From IMG/VR virus record IMGVR_UViG_3300017950_000006, positions 25,994 to 89,993 of that record: a stretch of DNA of 64,000 nucleotides; one strand, given 5' to 3'. The stretch comes from a virus. This document shows, in pieces, positions 2,168 through 63,286 of this stretch. The number at the start of each line of letters is the position of its first letter. Position 1 is the first letter of the stretch. Under the pieces are notes generated by a model, which did not search any database, was not told the origin of the DNA, and saw only the letters and a program-made list of their open reading frames with translations. The translations under genes and the position numbers were made by a program.

Positions 2168-5100
2168 ATGGCAAAAAGAAAAATTAATGAGTACATTTTC
2201 CATAACGGAATTTCTTATAGTGATAATTACTATCCTAATGCATATTGGTTAATTGAAAACAACGTTGAATTTATCATTGACGAAGTTCGTGCATATATTA
2301 ATACTAATATTGCAAAAGCCGCACAGCACACTCCAACAGACGCAACGTATAATCCGCAAACTGGAATAATGACACTGACTATTCCTAGTCATCCGTTTGT
2401 TCCAGGAGATCAAATTATTATTGAAGAAAGTGCGTTAGTGTTTACTTGTGGATTTGACAATTATGCAACCACACACGCATACCCAAGAGGTTCAGGAGCA
2501 CCAAACGATGCAGGAACTGATCCATATTTTGATGCACCGATTTTAATTACATCAACAACAACATCTACTATTACATTCTTTATTGGAATTTCATCAAATA
2601 CTTCAACACACGTTTTTGATTCAGCAGTTGCTAATGGTGTGCGAAGTGTGTTTTATAACTATGTAAATGATAGTGATGCTAAGTGTGAACGCGATATGCG
2701 TTATAATCTAATTGGTGGAGATAAGAATAATAGTGTTACAGATCAGCCAGGTGGATTATTATACGACTTAAGATATAAAGGTAATGAACAAGCACGTTAT
2801 CTAGCATCAACATATTGGGATAAAGCAATACCTCAGATTGATGGAGATAGAAATCCAGAAAGAGCCGCAAAGAATTTTTGTGCTTGGTTAATTAACAATT
2901 ACATTTTTACTAACGAAGCATGGACAACAAATCAAAGTCCTGCTGTAACAACACAAACTATTAATAGTGAATATATTGCAGAATCAGGCGCATCAAGTCA
3001 AGTTAATAAAGTATTAGTAGATACTATTGGTAGAGTTATTGTTGAAGGCACTGATGCAATGCCAGATTTCCATCGTGCAGAAATTAGTAGAGCAATTTTT
3101 CCAACAAAAGTAACACAAGACAATCTATTATTAATTACAAATACAACTACAAATCAAGTGTTGTTTAACTTTAGTGATCCATCTAAAGGCGCTGACGTAA
3201 AATATACATATGATTCTGTTGAATACACACCTACATATTTCTACTTTCAAAAATTCCTTGAAACTACTGATACAATTACTCAAGTATTATTCAACATAGA
3301 TACTACTAACGAAGAATATCTTACAAATTGTAGAGCATTACTTACAAATAACAAAGAGTTTATTAAAGACGAAGTACGTGCTTGGATCGCAGATCAAGTA
3401 GCAAATGCATCTGTAGGAAGTATCTGGGATGGATATACCTATAATGCGGCTAAGTGTGAAAGAGATACAGGATTTAACATTGACGCAATTATTGCTGATA
3501 TGCAATATGGTGGAAATGCAAACGTAAGAACCACAGCGTCAAAATATTGGAAGGGTCCTACTCCTCAAATTGACGGCACACGCGAACAAGAAATTGCCGC
3601 TAAAAACTTCATGCGTGATTTGGTTAACAATTATATTCTAACAAAAGCGGTATACCCAACAAAGCAAACAGGAACTCCAGAAACTACACAATACTTCTTA
3701 GGTGCAGATTGTGAACTTGGTGGGAACACAAGAGTTACATCACTTGTTTCAATTCTTACTGAAGTAATTGAAAAAGGTTTAGATTTTCTTCCAGTTGAAG
3801 ATAAGCCGAATGTATTTTCTGAAACAGATACACTTCAGATTTTTGTTGAGCAAGGTGATTTAAGAACAAGACCATATGATTTTGGTACTGATGCTATTGA
3901 AAGACAAAGAGTTGCAAATGCACTATCGATGCTTGATGCTGACTTTGAGTACGGATTACAGCCTACTAAATGGCAGGCAATTGGAACGATGCGTGGATAT
4001 CCATCAACATATGAAGTTCCGGGAACAGATACCGCAGTACAAAGTGTTATTACAGATGCGTCAGACGGCTCTGAAGGCATTGGTCAATCATTAATTACAG
4101 TTGTAACGGTTGGACCACATGGCGTACTTGCTGGACAGCCTATTACTATTAGAGGATTAGATGGCGCTGTTAAAGGCAACGGTCGTGCAGAAGGTACATT
4201 TATTGTTAATACTATTGTTAATAATTCAACATTTACATACTATGCAAAAGCAAAAGTTGGCACAGCCGCTGGAACACAGTTAGTAACATTTTATACAATT
4301 TTAAGACAGGCGGCATTTTATACAGGTGCGGCAATCCAAGGAGATACAGCAGGCTTTGTAGTTACATCTCAAGGATCATCAGGCTCATTTAGTCTTGCAT
4401 TAGGAGTTGATGCTGAAGAAAATAGATTACCTATTCAAGGAACACCACCAAGTCTTGGTGCTCCACTACAAGCAACCGGCGGAGGAATTCCAGTAGGTTC
4501 TCAGGTTACTGGTATCACTGGCGACGGAAATATTATTACAACTCCGGTTACTACCGCTGATACACCACAAGGAAGTTTTACAATATCTGTTGAAGATGCA
4601 ACTGATGTTGAAATTGGTTCAGCATTAGATAGAGGTGACGGATCAGCGGCCTTTGTTACTAATGTTGTAGGTAATGATTTAACTATTAGTTCAGCAACTA
4701 CACAAGTACTAGTTGGTAATAGAGTTTTATACTCAGGATTAACTGGAACAAATGATACTACAATTGGTAACGGTGCTACGTTTGATGTAACTAGAACAAG
4801 TGGAGTATACGCAGTATCACTTGGAAATACAGGACAAGATTATAAAATCGGTGATAACATTGTTATTAGTGGTGGAAGTTTAGGCGGAACAGATACAACA
4901 AACGATTTACGTATTGTTATTGAAGATGTTGACACTGGTGGAGAAATAGTTTCATTCGCATTCAGCGGTACAGGATTTGACGGTGAAGGAACATTCTTTG
5001 GAGTTAATGGACAACTTGCTGGCGGACAAGGTACTGATCCAGTATTTGATATTACATATACTAACAACGTTTATACTGCAAGTGTAGCATCACCTGATAC

Positions 5101-8100
5101 ATCATCAGGATATACAGTTGGCGATATTATTGTTATTGATGGTTTTGATGTTGGCGGACAAAGTGTAACCAACGATGCATTTATTAAAGTTGAAACTGTT
5201 GGGGCTGGCGGCTCTATTACTAGTGTATCAACTACAGGTACAGCAGTTGACGCTGATGTGAGTTATTCATCTCCTCCTTACACATCAACTACTATATCAG
5301 GTCTTGGTGCTGACTTTAACGTACAACGTATCGGTACTGTTTATTCAGTAGTAGTAACTAATCCAGGTACAGGATACTTAGCGGCAGAAACATTTACAAT
5401 TTTAGGATCAGAACTTGGTGGCGCTGACGGAACAAATAACTTAACAATTACAATCACTACTGTTGATGTTAACGGCGGTATTACTGGAGTAAGTACAGCA
5501 GGTACAGCAATTAATACAAGATCATATGGTTATGTTTCAGGTACTAACCAAATTGGATCTGGAGCAACATTCCAAATTGATCTAAGTGGCGGCGCTTATA
5601 CAATTAATATTGAAGGTGCAGGCCAAAGGTATGGTGTTGATCAAGTTATTAATATTTTAGGTACTCAAGTTAGCGGCACAGTTCCAGAAAACGACATTGC
5701 TATTACTATTACTTCTATTCAAAATGATGGAGGTATTACAGGAATATCATTTACAGGATCAGGTGCTACAGGATCAGGAACATATCTTGGAGCAATTGGC
5801 GATAACGATCCAAACTCTGGTGCAGATGCAGTCTTTAGTGTAACTAGAGATGCTGGAACTTATTCTATTGTTAATGCAACCGACAACGGTAGCGGATATA
5901 AAGTTGGTGATAGAATTATTATTCCAGGTGATCAATTAGGTGGCGACACTCCTACAAACGATTTAACACTTCGTTGTACAGTTGAATCTACTGAAGGTGA
6001 TTTCTTAGGAATTGATATTAGCGGAACAGCAGTTCCAGGCAGTACATTAGATCTTTATAGTTCTATAACAATGTCAGAGGAAACAACATCTAATATTAGT
6101 CAAGCAACAGTTATTACTTATAGTGCATTAGCAAGTATTAGAGTTACATTCCAAACACCTCATGGTCTTGTACCTGGAGATAGTTTTGCTGTAACTATAT
6201 CATCTGATGATGGTGCTAATCTTCATAACTTAGCGGCTGGACCGTTCAGTGCTACAGCAGTTCCTAGTTTAACACAATTAGAATATCAATGTAGATCACC
6301 AGGATTTATTGATACTGGAACAGCAAACGATCAACCAATTATTGGTGCAGTTTATCCAAGACCAGATTCGTTCTTTCTCCACAGACCATATGATGGTGGT
6401 GTTCAGTTAGGAACAGGTGGTCCACAACACGGTGCTCAAGCAATTAGACAGAGTAAAAAGTATATTAGATATCAGTCAGGTAAAGGTATTATGTACACAA
6501 CTGGTGCACTTTTTGCTCCAAGTTATAATATTCTTAATATTACAGCAAGCAATACATCACCAGGATCTGTAATCACTGTAACTACTGATGAAACAGAACA
6601 CGGGTTACAAGTTGGCGGACAAATTCGTATTATCGGAGTTGACACTGTAGGATATAATGATACTTACACTGTATCAGCGGTCAATGACGAAAATGAATTT
6701 GAAATTATTGCTGTAAATGCACTAGGATCAGTTACTCCTGAACTAAGTTCGGAATGTCAAGTGTCAATTAGTAAGTTTCACGGTGCAACTGTACGTTCAG
6801 GAGCATTTGATGATCAAAACGGTATCTTCTTTGAATATGACGGTACACAATTTAGTGCTGTACAAAGAACTGCTACTTTACAATTAGCAGGTGTTGTTGA
6901 TATCGATGTTGACTCTAACACTTGTACAGGAACAGGAACAAGATTTAGAGAACAACTAAAAGCAGGTGATAGAATTGTTCTTAAAGGTATGACTCACGTT
7001 GTATCCCAGGTTGTTGACAATACAACAATGTACCTTGCACCTGACTTCCGTGGTGTTACTAATGTACGTTCAAGTAAGATTTGTTTAGTAAGAGATAAGA
7101 AAACAGAACAAAAAGATTTTAACAGAGACAGAGGTGACGGAACAGGACCAAGTGGATATAACATTGATATCAGTAAGATGCAGATGGTAGGTATTCAATA
7201 TTCATGGTACGGTGCTGGTTTTATTGATTATATGCTACGTGGTGCAGATGGTAACTTTGTGTTTATGCACAGAATGAGAAACTCAAACATTAACACAGAA
7301 GCATTTATGCGTACAGGTAATATGCCAGTACGTTACGAAATTACTAACGAAGGACCAAGTGGTAAACTTTCACAAAATATTGACGCAGTAGTTGACACTA
7401 TTCCGTTAGTAGATGCTTCGTTCTTTCCACCAGAAGGCGGAACAGTTTATATTGATGCAGAAATGATACGTTTCACTGGAGTTGATGGTAAAAACTTAAT
7501 AGGTTGTACACGAGCAAGTACAATGACAAACTTTGCATCAGGCGCTACAAGAACATATAGCGGTGGACCAGCGGCGCAACATACACGAAATACAGGAGTT
7601 GTATTAATTAGTAATACAGCGTCACCGGTTATTTCACACTGGGGTTCAGCGTTTATTACAGACGGCGGCTTTGACTCAGATCGTGGATACTTGTTCTCAT
7701 ACAAATCAACTGGAGTTCAAGTTAGCACAACAAGAACAACATCATTCTTGCTTAGACTAGCACCGTCAGTATCTAACGCACTAGTTGGAGACTTGGGTGA
7801 AAGAGAACTACTTAACAGAGCACAGTTACTACTTGAAGGTCTTGAGATTACAACAGACCAACCGGTAGCGTTAGACACGGGCGGTATTGTTATTGAAGGT
7901 ATTTTGAATCCACAAAACTATCCATTAAACCCAGCGGACGTTGGTTGGCAGGGACTGTCAGGACTAGCACAAGGTGGACAGCCTAGTTTTGCACAAGTAG
8001 CACCAGGTGGTTCTACTAACTGGAACTCGGGTGATATACCAACCCAATCACTAGTCCTTACACAGGCACCGATTACTGCCGCTGTTACAGGTGTTGATAG

Positions 8101-8839
8101 AGGATATAGAAATAATAACGACTATTGGGATAATGCTGTGCGTACAGGAAGAAACTTCTTCTGGGTACAAGAGTCATTTTATGCGGCAAATCAAGCCTTA
8201 TTCCAAGTAGGTATTGAAATAGAATCACCAGGAAACTTCCCAGCAGGTACTACTATTCAACAAGTTGGTTCTTGGACAACGAGTTCGGCTAGTTCAGGAA
8301 CAATTAGACCAATTTATCTTAGTTCCAATGGTCAAACAAACGTTACAACCGGATCAATAGCCATTACATTTAAGAAAACGTTTAAAGAAGCACCAACTAA
8401 CAACATCTTCTTTGACAAAACTAGTTTTGATGCGGCTGGTGTAGCACAAGGTACTAACGTAAGTGATGGCAGATTCCCAGCAGGAACACAGGTATCTACA
8501 GTTAGTATTGGTGAATATAATAATGTAGAATATTATAGCGTAACATTTAACCAAACTTCAGATAACAGTGCTATTACTGCAGGTACTACAACTATTGAAT
8601 TTGAATTTGTGCAACCACCGTTTGCTCAACCAGGCGAAACTATCTTCTCATTCATTGCACAGCCTGGAGAAAGATCAACTCTTGATCTATCATTCATTAA
8701 GGAATTAACTAATACTACACTAGGTGGTAGAGGTACATTCCCGAATGGTCCAGACGTATTAGCAATTAACGTTTATAAGACATCGGGTGCGTCAATCATT
8801 AGTAACATTGTACTACGTTGGTCGGAAGCACAAGCATAA
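2168..8839 (+). CDS. Giant virion structural protein (baseplate/fibre-like) with internal repeats
   Basis: 2223 aa, G/T/S-rich. Two KCERD helical repeats and five ~85-aa Gly-rich beta repeats, like large structural proteins of marine T4-like phages. Confidence 0.7.
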   Translation: MAKRKINEYIFHNGISYSDNYYPNAYWLIENNVEFIIDEVRAYINTNIAKAAQHTPTDATYNPQTGIMTLTIPSHPFVPGDQIIIEESALVFTCGFDNYATTHAYPRGSGAPNDAGTDPYFDAPILITSTTTSTITFFIGISSNTSTHVFDSAVANGVRSVFYNYVNDSDAKCERDMRYNLIGGDKNNSVTDQPGGLLYDLRYKGNEQARYLASTYWDKAIPQIDGDRNPERAAKNFCAWLINNYIFTNEAWTTNQSPAVTTQTINSEYIAESGASSQVNKVLVDTIGRVIVEGTDAMPDFHRAEISRAIFPTKVTQDNLLLITNTTTNQVLFNFSDPSKGADVKYTYDSVEYTPTYFYFQKFLETTDTITQVLFNIDTTNEEYLTNCRALLTNNKEFIKDEVRAWIADQVANASVGSIWDGYTYNAAKCERDTGFNIDAIIADMQYGGNANVRTTASKYWKGPTPQIDGTREQEIAAKNFMRDLVNNYILTKAVYPTKQTGTPETTQYFLGADCELGGNTRVTSLVSILTEVIEKGLDFLPVEDKPNVFSETDTLQIFVEQGDLRTRPYDFGTDAIERQRVANALSMLDADFEYGLQPTKWQAIGTMRGYPSTYEVPGTDTAVQSVITDASDGSEGIGQSLITVVTVGPHGVLAGQPITIRGLDGAVKGNGRAEGTFIVNTIVNNSTFTYYAKAKVGTAAGTQLVTFYTILRQAAFYTGAAIQGDTAGFVVTSQGSSGSFSLALGVDAEENRLPIQGTPPSLGAPLQATGGGIPVGSQVTGITGDGNIITTPVTTADTPQGSFTISVEDATDVEIGSALDRGDGSAAFVTNVVGNDLTISSATTQVLVGNRVLYSGLTGTNDTTIGNGATFDVTRTSGVYAVSLGNTGQDYKIGDNIVISGGSLGGTDTTNDLRIVIEDVDTGGEIVSFAFSGTGFDGEGTFFGVNGQLAGGQGTDPVFDITYTNNVYTASVASPDTSSGYTVGDIIVIDGFDVGGQSVTNDAFIKVETVGAGGSITSVSTTGTAVDADVSYSSPPYTSTTISGLGADFNVQRIGTVYSVVVTNPGTGYLAAETFTILGSELGGADGTNNLTITITTVDVNGGITGVSTAGTAINTRSYGYVSGTNQIGSGATFQIDLSGGAYTINIEGAGQRYGVDQVINILGTQVSGTVPENDIAITITSIQNDGGITGISFTGSGATGSGTYLGAIGDNDPNSGADAVFSVTRDAGTYSIVNATDNGSGYKVGDRIIIPGDQLGGDTPTNDLTLRCTVESTEGDFLGIDISGTAVPGSTLDLYSSITMSEETTSNISQATVITYSALASIRVTFQTPHGLVPGDSFAVTISSDDGANLHNLAAGPFSATAVPSLTQLEYQCRSPGFIDTGTANDQPIIGAVYPRPDSFFLHRPYDGGVQLGTGGPQHGAQAIRQSKKYIRYQSGKGIMYTTGALFAPSYNILNITASNTSPGSVITVTTDETEHGLQVGGQIRIIGVDTVGYNDTYTVSAVNDENEFEIIAVNALGSVTPELSSECQVSISKFHGATVRSGAFDDQNGIFFEYDGTQFSAVQRTATLQLAGVVDIDVDSNTCTGTGTRFREQLKAGDRIVLKGMTHVVSQVVDNTTMYLAPDFRGVTNVRSSKICLVRDKKTEQKDFNRDRGDGTGPSGYNIDISKMQMVGIQYSWYGAGFIDYMLRGADGNFVFMHRMRNSNINTEAFMRTGNMPVRYEITNEGPSGKLSQNIDAVVDTIPLVDASFFPPEGGTVYIDAEMIRFTGVDGKNLIGCTRASTMTNFASGATRTYSGGPAAQHTRNTGVVLISNTASPVISHWGSAFITDGGFDSDRGYLFSYKSTGVQVSTTRTTSFLLRLAPSVSNALVGDLGERELLNRAQLLLEGLEITTDQPVALDTGGIVIEGILNPQNYPLNPADVGWQGLSGLAQGGQPSFAQVAPGGSTNWNSGDIPTQSLVLTQAPITAAVTGVDRGYRNNNDYWDNAVRTGRNFFWVQESFYAANQALFQVGIEIESPGNFPAGTTIQQVGSWTTSSASSGTIRPIYLSSNGQTNVTTGSIAITFKKTFKEAPTNNIFFDKTSFDAAGVAQGTNVSDGRFPAGTQVSTVSIGEYNNVEYYSVTFNQTSDNSAITAGTTTIEFEFVQPPFAQPGETIFSFIAQPGERSTLDLSFIKELTNTTLGGRGTFPNGPDVLAINVYKTSGASIISNIVLRWSEAQA

Positions 8840-47452: not shown

Positions 47453-48730
47453 ATGAAACATAGTTATTCAATAGAGGATTGTCTTGAGTTTCTTGTAGGA
47501 CACTCAATTGTTCCTGGATTACACTGGAAAGATAAACCATTTAATCTCTATAACGAAAATAGAAAGGTACTGTATAGTATCGGTACCCAGGTGTTTAAAG
47601 GAAAAGCATTAACTGATAAACAGCATGAGTTGGTTAAATCCTTGTTGGTTGAATGGTACTCAGATCAATTTAAAGCAGTTGGAATCAATATTGATCATCA
47701 TGTCGACATACTACGTTCAGAATATAGAGTTGTAGATAAAAGTCATTGGGTTAAGAAAACTACTTCAGAAGGAAACACATATATTAGTATACGTTTTCCG
47801 TTTAGTAATAATGCTATTGATCATATTGCTAAAATCAAATCATTAACTAGTGATAGACTTACTCACAAAGAAGATTATGTGTATAAAGATCATATTCATA
47901 GTTTTAGATACAACGAAATTAATGTTTATAAAATAGTTAATATAGCAAATTCATTTGATAATAAGCCTTTTGAGTTTGATGAAGAAGTTATTCAAGACTA
48001 TAATGATATTAAAAAATTTGATACAAACAAAGATGAATATGTTCCTGGCATTTACAATTTAGAATATAAAAACATTCCAACTACATTAGAATCACATCTA
48101 ACCAAACTATATGGCAAACCGTCCGAAAGTAATATCGTAGAACTTTGGGATAAAAGGCGTCTATATGGATTACACTCGTTTGACACTATTGATATTAGTA
48201 ACTATTCAACATTATCAAATAAAATTTTAGAAAGACAAGTTGCAAATATTCAAATTAGATCTGATGTTTGGACACTTGAACAACTGTTTGAATCAATCCG
48301 AGAACTAAATCGATTTCCGTTATTGGTGCTTATTAATGAGGATTATGCATCTGATGAGTTGTCTATGTTTTGGAATGTTGTAAAAGGATTTATAGATAAT
48401 AATGAGGTTTCAGTAACTTTTAGATTGGATAATAAAAATAATGAGGAATTTAACCAATTCATCAGAGATAAGGGATTAAATAATAGTGTAACAAATAAAA
48501 CTAAAATTGTTGTTGCTAATAGAAAGAAAATTTCAAAGCCGGTTATTAAGTCTGAATGGACACCAACGTGTATGTTAACATTTGGTACTTCACGAATCCC
48601 AAATCATATTGTTAATATCTACATGGAAAGTTTTGACTTAAAATTCTTTTATATAAAAGAAGACAGTTTAATATCTAGTACTATGCGTTCAAGACTACGC
48701 AAATACGACGAAGGAATTATTACAATATGA
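47453..48730 (+). CDS. Hypothetical protein
   Basis: 425-aa ORF with GAGG SD, coupled (ATGA) to uvsW. Confidence 0.65.
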   Translation: MKHSYSIEDCLEFLVGHSIVPGLHWKDKPFNLYNENRKVLYSIGTQVFKGKALTDKQHELVKSLLVEWYSDQFKAVGINIDHHVDILRSEYRVVDKSHWVKKTTSEGNTYISIRFPFSNNAIDHIAKIKSLTSDRLTHKEDYVYKDHIHSFRYNEINVYKIVNIANSFDNKPFEFDEEVIQDYNDIKKFDTNKDEYVPGIYNLEYKNIPTTLESHLTKLYGKPSESNIVELWDKRRLYGLHSFDTIDISNYSTLSNKILERQVANIQIRSDVWTLEQLFESIRELNRFPLLVLINEDYASDELSMFWNVVKGFIDNNEVSVTFRLDNKNNEEFNQFIRDKGLNNSVTNKTKIVVANRKKISKPVIKSEWTPTCMLTFGTSRIPNHIVNIYMESFDLKFFYIKEDSLISSTMRSRLRKYDEGIITI

Positions 48731-50187
48731 CAACTTGCAGAATAGTTTTACAAGACGAAGTAAATCTAAAAATTGAAGGACTTGAAGTAGATGTTCGGAG
48801 AAAGATTGCGAACAAACTAAAGTTTCAAGTTCCTTATGCTCGTTATTTGCCTCAATATAAACTAGGTAGATGGGACGGAACTGTAGGCTTCTTTGGTTTA
48901 GGTGGCAGTGGTTATATTAATCACTTGGATGTTATTCTTCGAGTTCTACAAGAACAAGGTGTAGAAGTTGGGGATATTCAAGACAACAGAGAAAAACATA
49001 ATTTAAGTTTTCCACAAGTAACAGAACGATACTGGGCAGACCAAGGCGTTGTATGGCCTAAAGGTCATCCAGCAGAAGGCGAAGATATTATTCTGCGTGA
49101 CTATCAAGTAGAAGCAGTTAATAACTTTTTAAAAAATCCACAAAGTCTACAAGAGATTGCTACAGGTGCAGGTAAAACTATTACAACTGCTACACTATCT
49201 CATCTATGTGAACCATACGGACGTAGTCTTGTAATTGTGCCTAACAAATCACTTGTTACACAAACAGAAGAAGATTATATTAACTGCGGACTAGACGCAG
49301 GTGTTTACTTTGGAGACCGAAAAGAACTAGGCAAAACTCATACTATCTGCACTTGGCAATCACTAAACATATTAGATAAGAAAAGCAAAAACGGTGAAGA
49401 CGTCCTTACACTTGCAGAATTTTTAGATGGTGTTAGTGCTATTATTGTAGACGAAGTACACCAAGCAAAAGCAGATGTACTTAAAAAACTACTAACACAA
49501 AACTTAAAAAATGCTCCAATACGTTGGGGACTAACTGGAACTATTCCAAAAGAACAATTTGAATTTCAAAGTATTCTTGCAAGTCTCGGACCGGTTGTAG
49601 GAAGTATTACTGCAAAAGAACTACAAGACAAGGGTGTATTATCTGATTGTCACGTCAATGTTGTACAAATGATTGATACTCAAGTACACACTGACTATCA
49701 GAGCGAATTAAAATATCTTGTTACTAACAAAGACAGGATTGAGTATATAGGCAAACTTCTTAACAATATAAAACAAACAGGCAACACTCTAATTTTAGTA
49801 GATAGAATTAGTGCAGGCGAAATGTTACAAGAAATTATTCCAAACTCAACTTTTGTAAAGGGTGATGTTAAATTAAAAGATCGAAAAGAAACTTATGATA
49901 CAATTAAAGAAGGTACCAATGAGGTTATTATCGCTACTTATGGGGTTGCCGCTGTTGGCATTAATATTCCTCGTATTTTTAATTTGGTACTTATTGAACC
50001 CGGGAAAAGTTTTGTCCGAGTTATTCAAAGCATTGGGCGTGGAGTAAGAAAGGCAAAGGATAAAGATTTCGTACAAATATGGGATATAACTTCAACTTGT
50101 AAGTATGCAAAGAGGCATCTTACTGAACGTAAAAAGTTTTACAAAGAAGCACAATATCCATTCACAATAGAAAAAGTAGATTGGTAA
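48727..50187 (+). CDS. uvsW: SF2 DNA helicase, UvsW-like
   Basis: LRDYQ, ATGAGKT, DEVH, GLTGT and QSIGR..R motifs. Confidence 0.9.
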   Translation: MTTCRIVLQDEVNLKIEGLEVDVRRKIANKLKFQVPYARYLPQYKLGRWDGTVGFFGLGGSGYINHLDVILRVLQEQGVEVGDIQDNREKHNLSFPQVTERYWADQGVVWPKGHPAEGEDIILRDYQVEAVNNFLKNPQSLQEIATGAGKTITTATLSHLCEPYGRSLVIVPNKSLVTQTEEDYINCGLDAGVYFGDRKELGKTHTICTWQSLNILDKKSKNGEDVLTLAEFLDGVSAIIVDEVHQAKADVLKKLLTQNLKNAPIRWGLTGTIPKEQFEFQSILASLGPVVGSITAKELQDKGVLSDCHVNVVQMIDTQVHTDYQSELKYLVTNKDRIEYIGKLLNNIKQTGNTLILVDRISAGEMLQEIIPNSTFVKGDVKLKDRKETYDTIKEGTNEVIIATYGVAAVGINIPRIFNLVLIEPGKSFVRVIQSIGRGVRKAKDKDFVQIWDITSTCKYAKRHLTERKKFYKEAQYPFTIEKVDW

Positions 50188-50702: not shown

Positions 50703-51250
50703 TGGTGCACACTCTTTCGGATCATTATAGACGTCAACTTCTAAAGTTACATCATACTAAGAATTCGTTTGGTTCGAAGTCTTGGTATAAAGGACTTGAC
50801 GAGTTCTTTGAAAAATATGAACCGGAGAGTGTAATTGATTACGGTTGTGGTAAAGGTAAGTTGTTAGAATCTATTAAAACACGATATCAAATTAAGGGAG
50901 TGGGATACGATCCTGGTGTAATTGAATTTATGACAACCCCGACTGAGCCTGCAGATGTGCTAGTATGTACAGATGTATTAGAACACATTGAACCTAATTT
51001 TATCGATACAGTGCTTTCACAAATCGATAAGTTATATACAAAAGGAGCATGGCTATTAATAGATACTGCTCCAGCAATTAAGTTTTTAGCAGACGGAAGA
51101 AATGCTCATCTAATACTTGAAGATAAAGAATGGTGGGATGATAAAGTAAAAACAATAATGATTAATAGTACTATTGTTTCTAGTAAGTTTAAAAAAAATA
51201 AAGTTATAATGGAGGTGTGTAAAAATGGAACCGATACTAATAAGTCCTAA
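50702..51250 (+). CDS. Class I SAM-dependent methyltransferase
   Basis: IDYGCGKG, GYDP and C.DVLEHI motifs. Confidence 0.8.
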   Translation: MVHTLSDHYRRQLLKLHHTKNSFGSKSWYKGLDEFFEKYEPESVIDYGCGKGKLLESIKTRYQIKGVGYDPGVIEFMTTPTEPADVLVCTDVLEHIEPNFIDTVLSQIDKLYTKGAWLLIDTAPAIKFLADGRNAHLILEDKEWWDDKVKTIMINSTIVSSKFKKNKVIMEVCKNGTDTNKS

Positions 51251-51860
51251 TTTAGTTTATAAGGCACATTGTCCTATAGATATGACTAATATTGCTGAAC
51301 GTGGTGCTAAACTTCTCGATACTATTGTTGACCCTGGCGAAGTTGAACAAGAAGGTGGCATAACAAGTACTGGACATCTAGATGCTCCACATATGTGGGA
51401 AGAAACACAATTATTAAACAAGTGGCTTAGAGTACAAGCAGAAAAGGTTTTAAATCTTTGGGATTTAAAATTTAATACATTTGGAGTTACTAAGAGTTGG
51501 GTTAATAGTCATTATCACGGAGCATGGACTGATTCACACGATCACGGTGACAGTCACTTAGTATGTTCAGTATACTTGAAACAACCGCCACACGGTGGCA
51601 ACTTAGAATTTGAAAATCTTGGTCGTTCAATGTTTGCAAGTTATCCACGTTTCCCTCAAAACAACAGTAGTCTACATAATTATTATACAGAAGTAGAAGT
51701 AAACCAAGGAGATGTTGTTTTCTTTCCTGGCTGGTTAAGTCATAAAAGTCAACCAAATAACAGTATGGAACGAAGAATAGTAATGGGTATGAATTGGCAC
51801 TGTTCTTTTGAAAGACCACCACAAATGAATAACAATCATATTACTAAGGACGCGGCCTAA
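51225..51860 (+). CDS. 2OG-Fe(II) oxygenase (TIGR02466-like)
   Basis: SWVN, HDH, SVYL, FFPGWLSH and R motifs. Confidence 0.75.
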   Translation: MEPILISPNLVYKAHCPIDMTNIAERGAKLLDTIVDPGEVEQEGGITSTGHLDAPHMWEETQLLNKWLRVQAEKVLNLWDLKFNTFGVTKSWVNSHYHGAWTDSHDHGDSHLVCSVYLKQPPHGGNLEFENLGRSMFASYPRFPQNNSSLHNYYTEVEVNQGDVVFFPGWLSHKSQPNNSMERRIVMGMNWHCSFERPPQMNNNHITKDAA

Positions 51861-53033: not shown

Positions 53034-53260
53034 TGGTAAAGATATACGAATCCCCAGATGGAGGTAATACGATTTTTGAACGTGATACTTGCACAGGGGC
53101 TCGTGTTCTTATTGAAGAACTAGAATATCCTGATTGGTATTTGAGTGAATTAGAACTAAGTGAAATAGTAGATTATGCAAATGAAGGAAATAAGTCTTTA
53201 CAAATACAACTAAAGAAGTTAAAATTAATGTATAATCTTATAAAAGAAAGTAACTGGTAA
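53033..53260 (+). CDS. Hypothetical protein (YESPDGG motif)
   Basis: 75-aa translationally coupled ORF. Confidence 0.55.
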   Translation: MVKIYESPDGGNTIFERDTCTGARVLIEELEYPDWYLSELELSEIVDYANEGNKSLQIQLKKLKLMYNLIKESNW

Positions 53261-53838
53261 TGAGAGATCCTAATAGAATTTTTGAAATAGAAAAACCATT
53301 TCCAGACTGGATGGTAAAGTATATTGAAGATCAAACTACTGATGTTGATTGGAAGTTTGTTCATGTTCCTGAAGAAGACGAAGTAGGCAATAACTACAAA
53401 ACACCTGCACTGTTTACTAATGTGATGTACTGCACACAGAGTGGTATACTTGATGATTGGAAAGAACTAAGCAAGATGTTACATACAGCATTGTGTATGA
53501 AAATTATTCCTGATTATATTCCGGACGCACACGTTAATCAAGTTACACGTACACGATTAAATGGAACAGTTAAAGGCGTGTATTATGGTCCTCATAACGA
53601 CGTAGCAAATGGACAGCCAGGATTATGGACGTTTGTTTATTATGTAAATGATGCAGACGGAGATACTATTTTCTTTTCAGATGACGGCAAAACTGAAATG
53701 AAAAGAACAAAATATAAAAAAGGAAATGCAGTTTTATTTCCTGCACATTATTGGCATACTATGGACGTGACAAATGTTCCGTTACGTGTTAGTATAGGAA
53801 TGACATACAGTATAGAGACAAAACTAAATGACGAATAA
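53260..53838 (+). CDS. 2OG-Fe(II) oxygenase
   Basis: PHND, YYVND.DG.T, FP...WH and R motifs. Confidence 0.75.
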   Translation: MRDPNRIFEIEKPFPDWMVKYIEDQTTDVDWKFVHVPEEDEVGNNYKTPALFTNVMYCTQSGILDDWKELSKMLHTALCMKIIPDYIPDAHVNQVTRTRLNGTVKGVYYGPHNDVANGQPGLWTFVYYVNDADGDTIFFSDDGKTEMKRTKYKKGNAVLFPAHYWHTMDVTNVPLRVSIGMTYSIETKLNDE

Positions 53839-55064: not shown

Positions 55065-55747
55065 TGTCAGATAAACCGTTTGTTTGTCAATATTGTAATG
55101 TAGGTTACACAAGAGAAAAGACTCTTGCTGTTCATATGTGTGAGCAAAAACGTAGAGCATTACAAAAAGGCGAGAAGCACGTTCAGTTAGGCTATTATGC
55201 GTTCACAAGGTTTTATCAACTATGTCAAAATTTGAAAGGTACAAAGACCTATGAAGAATTCTGTAAGTCTACCTATTATAATGCTTTTGTTAAGTTTGGT
55301 TCCTTTGTTTCAAATGTACGACCGCTATATCCAGAAAAGTATGTTGACTATGTGGTCACATCAGGAGTCAAACTTGATCACTGGTGCCGAGACGAACTAT
55401 ACGAAAAGTACGCACTCGAACTTATCAAAAAAGAAGGTGTCGAAACAGCAGTTGAACGTTCAATCAAAACCATGATGGATTGGGCTGATGCAAATAATGC
55501 TCCGTGGACTCATTATTTCCGTTATGCAAGTTTAAACAGAGTAACACAACATTTACGAGATGGCAAAATTAGTCCATGGCTTGTGTTGAACTGTAAGAGT
55601 GGAAAAGAGATGCTAGGCAAATTTAACGACGAACAACTGGCTATTGTATATCCTGTAATGGATCCACAGCATTGGGCATTACGGTTTAAGCGTAGTCCTG
55701 CTGATATTGAATTGGTAAAAGAAATTGCAGAAAAGGCTAGACTTTAA
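55064..55747 (+). CDS. Hypothetical protein with N-terminal Zn finger
   Basis: CQYC...(12)...HMC. Confidence 0.6.
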   Translation: MSDKPFVCQYCNVGYTREKTLAVHMCEQKRRALQKGEKHVQLGYYAFTRFYQLCQNLKGTKTYEEFCKSTYYNAFVKFGSFVSNVRPLYPEKYVDYVVTSGVKLDHWCRDELYEKYALELIKKEGVETAVERSIKTMMDWADANNAPWTHYFRYASLNRVTQHLRDGKISPWLVLNCKSGKEMLGKFNDEQLAIVYPVMDPQHWALRFKRSPADIELVKEIAEKARL

Positions 55748-55766
55748 CAATATTAGATGTTATAAT
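55738..55766 (+). promoter_or_regulatory. Sigma70-type promoter
   Basis: TAGACT-17 nt-TATAAT heading the operon that ends in the mini-DnaE gene. Confidence 0.65.
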
Positions 55767-56284: not shown

Positions 56285-56480
56285 AAAATATTCTGAGGTT
56301 TCACAATATAACCCAGATATACATACAAAAACAAAAGGCGGATTAGGATTCGGTATGAAAAGAAATGTTAAGGATAAAAAATATGACAGCAGTGGTTTAC
56401 ATCTTATTGATGTATTCAAGTGGGAAGTGCCTGAGCATTTAAAAGAAGCATACTTAGAAATGAAAAAAGAAAATGCCTGA
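56256..56480 (+). CDS. Small basic hypothetical protein
   Basis: 74-aa ORF overlapping both neighbours. Confidence 0.5.
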   Translation: MKKTNKKQHKKYSEVSQYNPDIHTKTKGGLGFGMKRNVKDKKYDSSGLHLIDVFKWEVPEHLKEAYLEMKKENA

Positions 56481-57042
56481 TATTGATATAGATTTTGCTA
56501 ACAGAGATCTTATACTTGATAAACTTAAACATCGAGTAGCAAAACTTGATACTGGTAAGAAACATAACACAGGAATTTATGCAACTGAGATCCCCCACAA
56601 TCCAATTGACAATCTTTCAACAATAGATTACGAAACAGCAGAAGAAAGGGGATACTTTAAATTAGACTTTCTTAATGTTTCGATATATACAGATATAAAA
56701 GATGAAGCCCATCTTTTAAACCTTATGAAAAGAGAACCACTATGGGACCTGCTTACCGAGCCAGAATTCAGCGACAACTTATTTCACGTCGCAGGACACA
56801 GTACCTTACTAAAAACAATGAAACCACAGAGTATTCCACAACTAGCCGCTTGCCTAGCAATGATACGTCCAGCGAAGAGACATTTAGTTGGACAACCGTG
56901 GGATACGGTGATGAAAGAAGTGTGGACGAAACCTGAGGACGGAAGTTATTTCTTTAAGAAAGCACACGCAATGGCTTATGCTGTTGGAGTGATTGTACAC
57001 ATGAATTTAATTTGTGAAAAAATTAGTTACGGATACAGTTAA
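56473..57042 (+). CDS. Minimal family-C (DnaE / Pol III alpha-like) polymerase core, 189 aa
   Basis: PDIDIDF, KHNTG, GYFKLDFL, P.SI..LA..LA.IRP and F.KAHA.AY motifs in DnaE order. Confidence 0.8.
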   Translation: MPDIDIDFANRDLILDKLKHRVAKLDTGKKHNTGIYATEIPHNPIDNLSTIDYETAEERGYFKLDFLNVSIYTDIKDEAHLLNLMKREPLWDLLTEPEFSDNLFHVAGHSTLLKTMKPQSIPQLAACLAMIRPAKRHLVGQPWDTVMKEVWTKPEDGSYFFKKAHAMAYAVGVIVHMNLICEKISYGYS

Positions 57043-57411
57043 TTATTTAGGTTTTCTAATAAGTTGAACTGAACGCCTTTTAACTCTTTTAACTGAAAGA
57101 TTCTTTAAATTAACACACGGTCCTAGTAATACTTTTACGTCTTTGCTATTCATATTAACCATACAATATCTAAACGTTTCCATTTCATGTCGTAAAAAGA
57201 TGTTAATCGGAATCATTCGATTAGATTCCCACCACCAGGCTTCACCTAGTTCTATAAAGTGTGTTTGATGTTCTTCATTAAGTATATTCGAATAAACGTA
57301 CATACTTGTAATAAAGTTATCTTGATTATTGATTATCCCAACATACTCCTGCCCACCGTAGGTAACTACGCTTAGGAATGGGAAATTTTCTTCTATGTCT
57401 GTTCTTAGCAT
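57043..57411 (-). CDS. Hypothetical protein
   Basis: 122 aa with WWWESNR.IPI motif; minus-strand TAAATA at 57455-57460. Confidence 0.6.
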   Translation of the reverse strand: MLRTDIEENFPFLSVVTYGGQEYVGIINNQDNFITSMYVYSNILNEEHQTHFIELGEAWWWESNRMIPINIFLRHEMETFRYCMVNMNSKDVKVLLGPCVNLKNLSVKRVKRRSVQLIRKPK

Positions 57412-59315: not shown

Positions 59316-59561
59316 ATGTTTATGAGTGAATTTAGACAAGGTATTTTTAATTTGTTAAAACGATTGATTGGCGGTAGCAGTGCGGCGCTGGCAATAGTGT
59401 ACACTATTGGACACATTGTAATTGCTATGATCTGTAACAATTTAATTACTGGTGCTTCATTTGAATTAGCGGCAGTTGATGCTATTGTTGAACCAATGAT
59501 TAACGGTGTGTGGTTTTATATATTACACACAAGTTATAAAAAATTTAAAGGTGTAGAATGA
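59316..59561 (+). CDS. Small membrane protein, DUF2061-like
   Basis: IVYTIGHIVIA...A.VEP.IN.VWFY.LH pattern. Confidence 0.6.
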   Translation: MFMSEFRQGIFNLLKRLIGGSSAALAIVYTIGHIVIAMICNNLITGASFELAAVDAIVEPMINGVWFYILHTSYKKFKGVE

Positions 59562-60520
59562 TAATTTGGGGAATGGTCGGCAACAGTCACGATGCAAGTT
59601 TAGCAGTGTTTAAAGACGGCAAACTAAAATGGGCGGCACTTGCTAAAGACTTTAGTGGCGTAGCAAATGATCCAAACTTTAGTTGGACTATGTTAAGTGT
59701 AGCAAGAGAAATGTACGGAGAACCAGATAAGGTAGTTTGGTATGAACGTCCTATGCTTAAATCTTTTAGACAACTACTAGCCGGACAAGGATTCTTATTT
59801 AAAGAAAACAATATTGAAAGTTATCTAAAGCAATGGAGCATTAGATGTCCTATTGAATATGTACAGCATCATCACAGTCATGCGGCATATGGATATTATA
59901 CTAGTGGCTTTAGAGATGCTAGTATTATTTGTATTGACAGTATTGGAGAGTGGGAAACTCTTACTATGTGGAAAGGCGAAGGGGATAAACTAACAAAAGT
60001 CAGTTCACAAGGATATCCACACAGTCTAGGTTTGTGGTACAGTGCAATGACACAGCGTCTAGGATTTGAACCAAACAAAGACGAATACAAAGTTTCTCAA
60101 CTTGCTATGAAAGGCGACTATAGACTTTACGACCAAGTTATATTAAATGAATTTTTTGAATTTGAACCAAATAACCCATTCTGTGTTGTAAAACTAAAAG
60201 AAAATTGTCATAGAGGTTTACGTTGGTGGAGACCTGAAATCGAAGATTTAGAAAACTTGGCGGCGGCAGTTCAATTTGTTTTCCAAAAGATTGTATTACG
60301 ATTAACAACAAGTATGGCGTTACATATGCCTAGTAAAAATTTAATTGTAACTGGAGGTTGTGCATTAAACAAAGGAGCAATGGACTATATTAGACCAAAC
60401 TGGGAAAACTTATGGATCCCACCAAATCCGGGAGATCCAGGATCATGTATTGGAGCAGTGTTGGCTTCGGAAAAGAAACATATTGACTTTAATCCAGAAG
60501 TATGGTATAATAGCAAGTAA
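59558..60520 (+). CDS. Carbamoyltransferase N-terminal (Kae1-like) domain only
   Basis: SHDAS, HHHSHAA, IDSIGE, SLG..Y, EYKV, GGCALN and PGD.G..IG motifs; ends without a C domain. Confidence 0.8.
   Translation: MIIWGMVGNSHDASLAVFKDGKLKWAALAKDFSGVANDPNFSWTMLSVAREMYGEPDKVVWYERPMLKSFRQLLAGQGFLFKENNIESYLKQWSIRCPIEYVQHHHSHAAYGYYTSGFRDASIICIDSIGEWETLTMWKGEGDKLTKVSSQGYPHSLGLWYSAMTQRLGFEPNKDEYKVSQLAMKGDYRLYDQVILNEFFEFEPNNPFCVVKLKENCHRGLRWWRPEIEDLENLAAAVQFVFQKIVLRLTTSMALHMPSKNLIVTGGCALNKGAMDYIRPNWENLWIPPNPGDPGSCIGAVLASEKKHIDFNPEVWYNSK
60483..60511 (+). promoter_or_regulatory. Sigma70-type promoter
   Basis: TTGACT-17 nt-TATAAT with TG extension, upstream of the helicase gene. Confidence 0.75.
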
Positions 60521-62680: not shown

Positions 62681-62701
62681 TATATGTATATAAGTACTAG
62701 T

Positions 62702-63286
62702 ATGATTAAAGATTTTATAGGTGTGTTTGACAATCAACTCGATCCAGAGTACTGTCAAACTGTAATTGATTACTATCACCAACAAGAAGGAACACGTATA
62801 CTTACACGCCAAACTGCTAACGAGCAAGCACCAAAGATGAACAAGGACGGTGCGATGCTATATGACGAAGGTGAGTCTGGTACGTTTGCTTTAAGTATGA
62901 ACAAACTGCTAGAGCCTTACTACAATGCTCTTCAAAATTGTATACTAGATTATACACAAGAATTTGGTGTGTTCGAAAATCTTAATCCAATTCAAATATC
63001 ACATTCGATTAAAATACAACATACCCGCCCTACAGAAGGATATCATATTTGGCACTGTGAACACGCAAGTCGCGATACAGGACAACGTGCTTTATTGGCT
63101 ATGGCTTATTTGAATACTGTAAAAGAAGGTGGCGAAACAGAGTTCTTGTATCAAAGCAGACGCATACCTGCGACACAAGGAACTATTATGATTTGTCCTG
63201 CAGGATTTACTCATACACATAGAGGCAATCCTCCACTAAGTGGTGACAAATATGCTATCACCACTTGGTTGGAGTTTACTCACTAA
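62702..63286 (+). CDS. 2OG-Fe(II) oxygenase (prolyl 4-hydroxylase-like)
   Basis: GYH.WHCE, YLN.V.EGGETEF and THTHRGNPP..G.KY motifs; TAAGTA-N5-ATG start at 62702. Confidence 0.85.
   Translation: MIKDFIGVFDNQLDPEYCQTVIDYYHQQEGTRILTRQTANEQAPKMNKDGAMLYDEGESGTFALSMNKLLEPYYNALQNCILDYTQEFGVFENLNPIQISHSIKIQHTRPTEGYHIWHCEHASRDTGQRALLAMAYLNTVKEGGETEFLYQSRRIPATQGTIMICPAGFTHTHRGNPPLSGDKYAITTWLEFTH

Follow-up and report, generated by a model that had tools for sequence, protein, structure and literature searches.

The DNA analysed here, a window of 64,000 nucleotides that forms bases 25994-89993 of the 89,993-base IMG/VR record IMGVR_UViG_3300017950_000006 (25% complete according to CheckV), carries in its replication region an open reading frame (ORF) for a 189-residue protein with motifs of bacterial DnaE, the alpha subunit of DNA polymerase III (Pol III alpha), a family C polymerase (Table 1). 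The original prediction, made from the sequence alone, had described this ORF as a stand-alone miniature polymerase core. Our analysis points instead, with a probability that we put at about 0.82, to the C-terminal unit (C unit) of a split minimal Pol III alpha as known from jumbo phages of group 2.2 (RaK2/PA5oct-like), in which the preceding part of the polymerase fold is carried by a separate protein, the N-terminal unit (N unit).

Table 1. Features of the replication region and subdivisions of the C unit, in window coordinates.
Feature	Position	Strand	Remarks
UvsW-like helicase	48727-50187		T4-like replication region
148-residue gene			PHROG 11758; between the UvsW-like helicase and ZnF227
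ZnF227, 227 residues	55064..55747	+	C-x2-C-x12-H-x-C finger; PHROG 11058, E 1.5e-60, function unknown
Sigma-70-like pair TAGACT-17-TATAAT with TG	55738..55766	+	10/12 match
C unit, 189 residues	56473..57042	+	ATG/TAA; putative C-terminal (Mg2+- and template-binding) unit of a split minimal Pol III alpha
C unit, palm part, residues 1-68	56473..56676	+	five beta-strands; aligned to E. coli 399-418, 539-557
D3, D5, D7	codons 56479-56493	+	palm part
K63, D65	codons 56659-56667	+	palm part
C unit, reduced all-helical fingers part, residues 69-189	56677..57039	+	helices H70-185; aligned to E. coli 557-641, 739-769
R132-P133	codons 56866-56871	+	fingers part
F161-K-K-A-H165	codons 56953-56967	+	fingers part
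Convergent 122-residue gene	57043..57411	-	PHROG 11637, E 5.7e-35, function unknown
Virion-structural-like gene, 260 residues	57431..58213	+	PHROG 14467 'virion structural protein', E 2.2e-11
gp61-type DNA primase, 318 residues	58249..59205	+	PHROG 47, E 1.4e-35; Pfam Toprim_2 23.6 bits, cut-off 22.1
Nol-like carbamoyltransferase	59558-60520	+	between primase and helicase; kept there in most related loci
DnaB/gp41-type helicase			after the carbamoyltransferase

The gene and its active-site residues

All of the DnaE-like motifs listed in the original prediction are present in the translation, and in the order given: PDIDIDF (residues 2-8), KHNTG (30-34), GYFKLDFL (60-67), P118-x-S-I-x-x-L-A-x-x-L-A-x-I-R-P133 and FKKAHAMAY (161-169). 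The start of the gene overlaps the stop of a 74-residue ORF upstream by 8 bases, and the protein opens directly with M-P-D-I-D-I-D, with no G-S nucleotide-binding loop ahead of the DxD strand on the same chain. An AlphaFold2 model of the C unit, with a mean predicted local distance difference test score (pLDDT) of 96.7 and a predicted template modelling score (pTM) of 0.88, consists of a five-stranded palm piece followed by an all-helical module; DSSP places the palm strands at E4-8, E21-24, E30-36, E48-52 and E64-68.

Alignment with HMMER to the E. coli protein, numbered as in the structure 2hnh, equates D3, D5 and D7 with D401, D403 and D405, K63 with K553, D65 with D555, R132-P133 with R639-P640, K163 with K758 and H165 with H760, where the DxDxD stretch gives no score by itself and the identity of the motif was judged by eye. 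The residues D401, D403, D555 and H760, which a review singles out, in the part available, as key to the active site of Pol III alpha, are matched by D3, D5, D65 and H165, so that the catalytic Asp triad and the fingers histidine are accounted for in this alignment. The original prediction had paired D5 and D7 with D401 and D403, a register shifted by one Asp; all three Asp residues are invariant and nothing else changes. Its equation of KHNTG with KHAGG was unsupported by any alignment that we ran and rests on inspection.

Relationship to DNA polymerase III alpha

Searches with the C unit by itself detected phage families readily and the curated Pfam and NCBIfam models hardly at all. The protein matches PHROG 11778 ('DNA polymerase') with an E value of 8.3e-60, residues 3-183 falling on positions 8-194 of 197, and the 1190-position Pol III family PHROG 405 with an E value of 9.4e-7. 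Among Pfam models PF17657 (fingers) alone was hit, at 11.6 bits and under its cut-off of 22; no NCBIfam model, TIGR00594 for DnaE/PolC included, matched at E <= 0.01, phmmer with the single sequence returned no match in the PDB, and megablast of the region against phage records likewise returned none.

A profile built from 71 relatives, which share 31-53% identity with the query, was more sensitive, and all nine distinct PDB sequences that it matched were Pol III alpha, the best being 2hnh (E 9.1e-6). The match consists of three collinear stretches, at E. coli residues 399-418, 539-641 and 739-769. Between the first and second there are about 33 profile positions versus about 120 E. coli residues, and between the second and third about 10 versus about 97; compared with E. 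coli alpha, about 87 residues are gone at the site of the thumb, a domain that, according to the part available of a review, lies embedded in the palm and holds the duplex, about 87 more are gone within the fingers, and so is everything beyond about residue 780. This restriction to three stretches bears out the earlier statement that the PHP domain, most of the thumb, and the beta-binding and OB domains are missing. Judged by these alignments, the C unit corresponds to residues 399-769 of E. coli alpha, minus the thumb and a large part of the fingers.

Comparisons of profiles and of folds, which the original prediction had suggested, placed Pol III alpha at the top in both cases. Alignment of the C-unit profile with a full-length metagenomic DnaE by hhalign gave a probability of 89% (E 2e-6). 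A Foldseek search of the C-unit model against the PDB yielded six matches at E <= 0.001, all of them Thermus Pol III alpha, and ranks 1-11, 13 and 14 were Pol III alpha or DnaE1 chains (best E 2.4e-4, probability 1.00); the TM-scores were modest, at 0.38-0.49 on the query, because the target structures bear large insertions. Neither the profile search nor the fold search of the C unit matched any family other than bacterial Pol III alpha, whose homologous core of palm and fingers is seen in the DnaE structures of E. coli (2HNH, 5FKV), Thermus (2HPI/3E0D/4IQJ) and M. tuberculosis (DnaE1, 5LEW). The family C domain set of PHP, thumb, full fingers, clamp-binding and OB parts is absent from the phage protein, which, unlike DnaE (about 1160 residues), has only 189 residues and no PHP, clamp-binding, OB or tau-binding parts; also unlike DnaE, the first palm part (E. 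coli 270-392) lies on another polypeptide, and the C unit scores below the curated Pfam and NCBIfam cut-offs. That the ORF is a C unit of this kind is close to certain.

The N-terminal half on a separate protein

The part of the palm that should precede the DxD strand was found in relatives of the window. In phage PA5oct, the 169-residue protein EST35_0288, encoded 43 kb from the C unit, matches PHROG 405 at positions 362-429 and terminates just past a G-R-G-S-S loop, while the PA5oct C unit covers positions 440-462, 580-678 and 774-809 of the same family. The corresponding protein of a marine relative, P0122 (185 residues), matches Pfam PF07733 with 42.7 bits, over the cut-off of 23.9. A profile of N units aligned to E. 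coli residues 270-392 (E 0.006), and all five of its matches were E. coli Pol III alpha; this alignment stops 6 residues short of the C-unit start at 399. The N and C units are, as these alignments place them, consecutive pieces of one fold, divided after the nucleotide-binding loop and ahead of the metal-binding strand. An AlphaFold2 model of the N unit was poorer than that of its partner (pLDDT 67, with residues 1-76 mostly below 60); Foldseek returned no match to it at E <= 0.001, and the ten best rows were all Pol III alpha. Prediction of a three-chain complex of N unit, C unit and the zinc-finger neighbour of the C unit gave the neighbour a score of 0.00 with a tool calibrated on two chains, a result that speaks neither for binding nor against it, and left the N-C contact unscored.

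In each fuller genome where it was found, the N unit is a separate protein of about 170-185 residues, encoded on the same strand as the C unit and 11-122 kb away from it. The subunit of a split polymerase, listed last among the alternatives of the original prediction, is the one that these genomes favour, as the N unit is present in PA5oct, RaK2, Slickus01 and two large IMG/VR relatives, G002 and G003. The distance between the halves is 43 kb in PA5oct, 33 kb in RaK2, 11 kb in Slickus01 and 122 kb in G002, the nearest large marine relative. The RaK2 N unit lies at about 149.1 kb of its genome. By tblastn, the N unit occurs in 98 phage records and the C unit in 96, with closely matching tallies for C and N units by host genus (Escherichia 34/34, Pseudomonas 11/11, Klebsiella 11/10, Erwinia 8/8, Salmonella 8/8, Xanthomonas 4/4 and Yersinia 4/4), the N-unit list also taking in a few full-length DnaE of Bacillus phages. 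Among the best 40 rows of each list, at least 13 further accessions encode the two units on a common strand, with 14-34 kb between them. The C-unit matches listed are jumbo-type myoviruses of the PA5oct, Atu_ph07 and RaK2 kinds, together with a few others. One carrier of both halves, Alishewanella phage vB_AspM_Slickus01 (OQ508957.1), is a complete circular myovirus of 141,644 bases, below the 200-kb jumbo limit, so jumbo phages are not the only carriers of the split mini-Pol III.

A family B polymerase is encoded in PA5oct, G002 and G003, in the latter two at 27-30 kb from the N unit; a further large relative, G001, has neither N unit nor family B polymerase, which may be because one missing segment holds both. 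The PA5oct family B polymerase matches Pfam in two open frames of 825 and 379 residues (217618-221395), which implies that it too is in pieces or interrupted. No PHP domain above the cut-off was present in any of five related records, the complete PA5oct and RaK2 genomes included; a weak match in G002 (14.7 bits, below the cut-off) was rejected as it lies inside a gene that is KdsB-like by sequence. Within the window's own 89,993-base record, family B polymerase (PF00136), PF07733 and PHP (PF02811) gave no match. We infer that the partner of the window's C unit lies off the contig, because the record is 25% complete and the halves are 122 kb apart in the nearest large relative.

Two further observations concern the surroundings of the N unit. 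It is always followed by an ORF of 113-127 residues with a conserved G-D-x-L-G-P-G-G (L093 1978-2361; L094 1987-2370; EST35_0289 in PA5oct), and next in line is a GroES-like gene, which bears the label 'chaperonin' in PA5oct; the marine relative has one more small ORF behind it. The gene ahead of the N unit in PA5oct equals the zinc-finger gene in length but was set aside as unrelated by eye and not kept in G003.

These results bear directly on the claim that the 189-residue protein alone is a complete nucleotidyltransferase. Such autonomy would agree with an intact ORF that starts exactly at the catalytic motif, with the compact and confident AlphaFold2 model obtained without a partner, and with the lack of a partner gene within the 90-kb record, yet the GS/GRGS element, which in this fold lies ahead of the DxD strand, is found on another protein, whose end is 6 residues short of the split, the halves co-occur in the fuller genomes examined, and a fused natural form is known (described below). 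We consider it very improbable that the C unit acts alone, and obligate pairing with the N unit very probable.

A family C gene in two distant pieces has a precedent in the split dnaE of cyanobacteria, where the products are joined by a trans-splicing intein. The phage pair differs from it in leaving no room for intein halves and in a C unit with a Met of its own, and also in being a minimal core, not a full replicase. The N unit reaches the equivalent of E. coli residue 392 and the C unit opens at that of residue 399, so that a non-covalent association would be required.

A natural fused form

One metagenomic protein joins the two halves. P0342 (375 residues, from an ENA metagenome) carries an N unit at residues 23-180 (35% identity, E 3e-28) and a C unit at residues 190-370 (E 9e-64 to the family profile, 37% identical to the C unit of the window), collinear, in the order of DnaE, on one polypeptide and with a linker of about 10 residues. 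Across the junction run both a PF07733 match (59.6 bits) and a single BLAST high-scoring segment pair to full-length DnaE. For an in-frame, collinear chimera to arise exactly where the enzyme is split would take an extraordinary coincidence. P0342 is the only fused form among the 150 representatives listed. Its DNA was not found in viral contigs, and metagenome contigs gave two ordinary dnaE genes only. Another candidate, P0394 (425 residues, on a 1405-base ENA contig), was discarded as probably a chimeric assembly, since it combines a reverse-transcriptase-like N-terminal part with a C unit that has no DxD start. On the metagenome contig OKRZ01000398.1 (L095 6366-10382), a full-size dnaE is present as two adjacent ORFs, a 382-residue PHP part and a 933-residue polymerase part, a split that differs in kind from the one studied here.

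Conservation and selection

Seven residues, D3, D5, D7, K63, D65, R132 and P133, are invariant in all 71 relatives, and H31, G34, Y36, P41, W91, P118, K162 and H165, among others, are kept in at least 90% of the 71 sequences. The coding sequence is intact in 81 of 81 cases (80 IMG/VR loci and the window), with lengths of 185-197 residues. The ratio of nonsynonymous to synonymous substitution rates (dN/dS) has a median of 0.144 and a maximum of 0.246, over the 388 of 2485 pairs among 71 distinct coding sequences for which 0.05<dS<1.5. Conservation of the triad and dN/dS in homologs were among the checks that the original prediction had put forward, and both favour its view of a streamlined, Pol-beta-fold protein with a DnaE-type palm and fingers over that of a decayed gene.

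The family is large, with at least 7978 protein clusters at 90% identity among 8000 candidates scored (E <= 0.001) and at least 543 IMG/VR stretches confirmed to carry it; clustering at 50% identity leaves 424 representatives (E <= 0.001), and most of the 150 listed have 183-219 residues.

Two alternatives can be weighed on this basis. The first, that the ORF is an assembly fragment or pseudogene of a full-length dnaE, is suggested by its short length only and is refuted: the same boundaries, an M-x-D-x-D-x-D start and a stop after about 185-197 residues, recur in all 81 coding sequences on independent contigs and again in complete isolate genomes, and the flanking genes are kept on both sides. 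The second would make the protein a catalytically dead relic with a structural or regulatory role in the replisome. The domain reduction is extreme, as might be expected of a relic, but the metal-binding and nucleotide-contacting residues are invariant over the 71 sequences at 31-53% identity and purifying selection is strong. Dead enzymes usually lose their catalytic residues, and we regard this explanation as highly improbable.

A conserved replication module

The C unit occupies a fixed place among its neighbours. In all 72 IMG/VR loci whose flank is long enough, as in PA5oct (where it is EST35_0219) and RaK2, ZnF227 lies upstream of the C unit; its finger residues C8, C11, H24 and C26 are invariant in 39 sequences, and in 12 of 80 loci the ZnF227 match ends no more than 9 bases from the C-unit start. 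In the window, three small unconserved ORFs lie between the two genes. ZnF227 may be a nucleic-acid-binding partner. Downstream, the stop codon of the convergent 122-residue gene abuts that of the C unit (57040-57045), and this gene is kept in 74 of 74 loci with flank, plus PA5oct and RaK2. The structural-like gene is present in 70 of 70 loci, its PA5oct counterpart being annotated as structural by electrospray ionisation tandem mass spectrometry (ESI-MS/MS), and the primase in 58 of 58 loci with flank. The order of finger protein, C unit, convergent gene, structural-like gene and primase is also that of PA5oct and RaK2, and of Slickus01 by gene sizes only. The original prediction had been right about the proximity of the primase, which starts 1.2 kb downstream, and the synteny with it that was to be examined holds wherever the flank is available.

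The sigma70-like promoter reported at 55738 stands as a site, but not as a signal above background: promoter-like sites in the region number 15, versus 14.0 +/- 3.8 in shuffles. No terminator-like site was found in the region.

Other genes of the region and of its relatives deserve mention. Three 2-oxoglutarate- and Fe(II)-dependent (2OG-Fe(II)) oxygenase-like genes lie in the replication region (51225-51860, 53260-53838 and 62684-63286, all on the + strand), and together with the carbamoyltransferase they may be related to nucleotide or DNA modification. Just upstream of the module of finger protein and C unit in G002 (L053 5880-7314) are KdsA-like and KdsB-like genes, which by their sequences would serve synthesis and activation of 3-deoxy-D-manno-oct-2-ulosonic acid (Kdo).

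Proposed mechanism and activity

In the model that we propose, the N and C units would associate non-covalently into one nucleotidyltransferase active site of about 375 residues. The GRGS loop of the N unit would bind and hold the triphosphate, D3, D5 and D65 of the C unit would bind two metals, and the reduced fingers, through R132, K163 and H165, would close on the incoming nucleotide and the template. Such an enzyme would be expected to make short, distributive, templated patches of DNA, given that it lacks a thumb as well as clamp-binding, OB and proofreading parts. Beside a T4-type family B replicase, it would extend primers in the wake of the neighbouring primase, fill gaps or take part in repair, and the fixed place by the primase together with the separate family B replicase fits such a role.

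Templated DNA synthesis is the activity that we favour by a narrow margin over everything else taken together. A different activity of the same N-C pair, as a non-templated nucleotidyltransferase that tails DNA, modifies primers or makes a signalling nucleotide, would be compatible with the lack of thumb, clamp-binding, OB and exonuclease parts, and the Pol-beta fold superfamily includes many non-polymerase transferases. Against this activity, the fingers motifs for nucleotide selection and catalysis are retained (H165, equivalent to H760, and R132-P133), all relatives found by structure or by sequence are replicative polymerases of family C, and the gene is a constant member of a replication module that also encodes primase and helicases; we consider it unlikely.

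Several observations count against a split polymerase as the explanation of the window's ORF. The C unit folds confidently by itself in AlphaFold2, and nothing in that model marks it clearly as an unstable half-domain. A search of the window's own 89,993-base record yielded no N unit, so that pairing in this phage is deduced from relatives, and three of the five large IMG/VR relatives (73%, 46% and 33% complete) gave no N unit either, with the N unit present in the other two (67% and 66% complete). The fused P0342 is a singleton from one 2415-base ENA contig, known from its protein sequence alone, and the literature searched yields no bench test of any member of the family.

A bolder proposal goes beyond the split Pol III alpha that we prefer and is speculative, with the odds well against it: the two halves could form the smallest known active family C polymerase (about 375 residues, no thumb), a second polymerase of T4-like giant phages that is dedicated to extending primers or filling gaps and acts only within a fixed module, with the adjacent ZnF227 supplying the grip on DNA and the gp61-type primase the primers. 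If the pair is active, it would reduce the fold of bacterial-type replicases to its minimum, would be an enzyme that nature makes in two pieces, and would give T4-like replisomes a second polymerase.

Relation to described systems

For jumbo phages of group 2.2, a split minimal Pol III alpha that is present beside a family B polymerase is described in the available portions of Iyer, Anantharaman, Krishnan, Burroughs and Aravind (2021, Viruses 13:63), the one paper on this enzyme in the literature searched, who also propose there that it works beside the family B replicase. Because the split minimal Pol III alpha was described in 2021, a claim of novelty is not supported; the C unit is a real, well-kept gene and neither a new nor a stand-alone enzyme. 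In the available part of Weinheimer and Aylward (2022), PF07733 is the single domain that distinguishes the largest of their clusters of marine jumbo phages, being found in 51.9% of its phages. Many N units are already labelled 'DNA polymerase III alpha' in GenBank records, and the omics paper on PA5oct does not mention polymerase genes.

The closest described counterparts of the C unit are PA5oct EST35_0220 (50% identical) and RaK2 ORF124 (39%), which share its length, its DxDxD start and its gene module. Unlike PA5oct and RaK2, the window's phage is uncultured and comes from a salt-marsh and estuary setting, and the halves are farther apart in the nearest large marine relative (122 kb) than in the isolates (30-43 kb). 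The window adds one member and leaves what is known of the family unchanged. Relative to the accessible text of Iyer et al. (2021), our additions are modest: the fused form, a 142-kb carrier that is not a jumbo phage, the five-gene module that extends from marine phages to RaK2, and the presence of the family in metatranscriptome libraries.

Occurrence in environmental libraries

Fourteen DNA runs, taken from salt marsh, estuary and seawater and including one possible source, contain a 4.3-kb stretch of the region nearly whole (0.90-0.97 of sampled words). Six metatranscriptome runs carry parts of the stretch, and contigs from four RNA libraries, at least 99% alike, span most of the ORF (for example 56502-57126 in one run), with DNA carry-over being possible, so that we do not take them to prove expression. 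Elsewhere in the window, an ORF of 2223 residues lies near its start (2168-8839, + strand).

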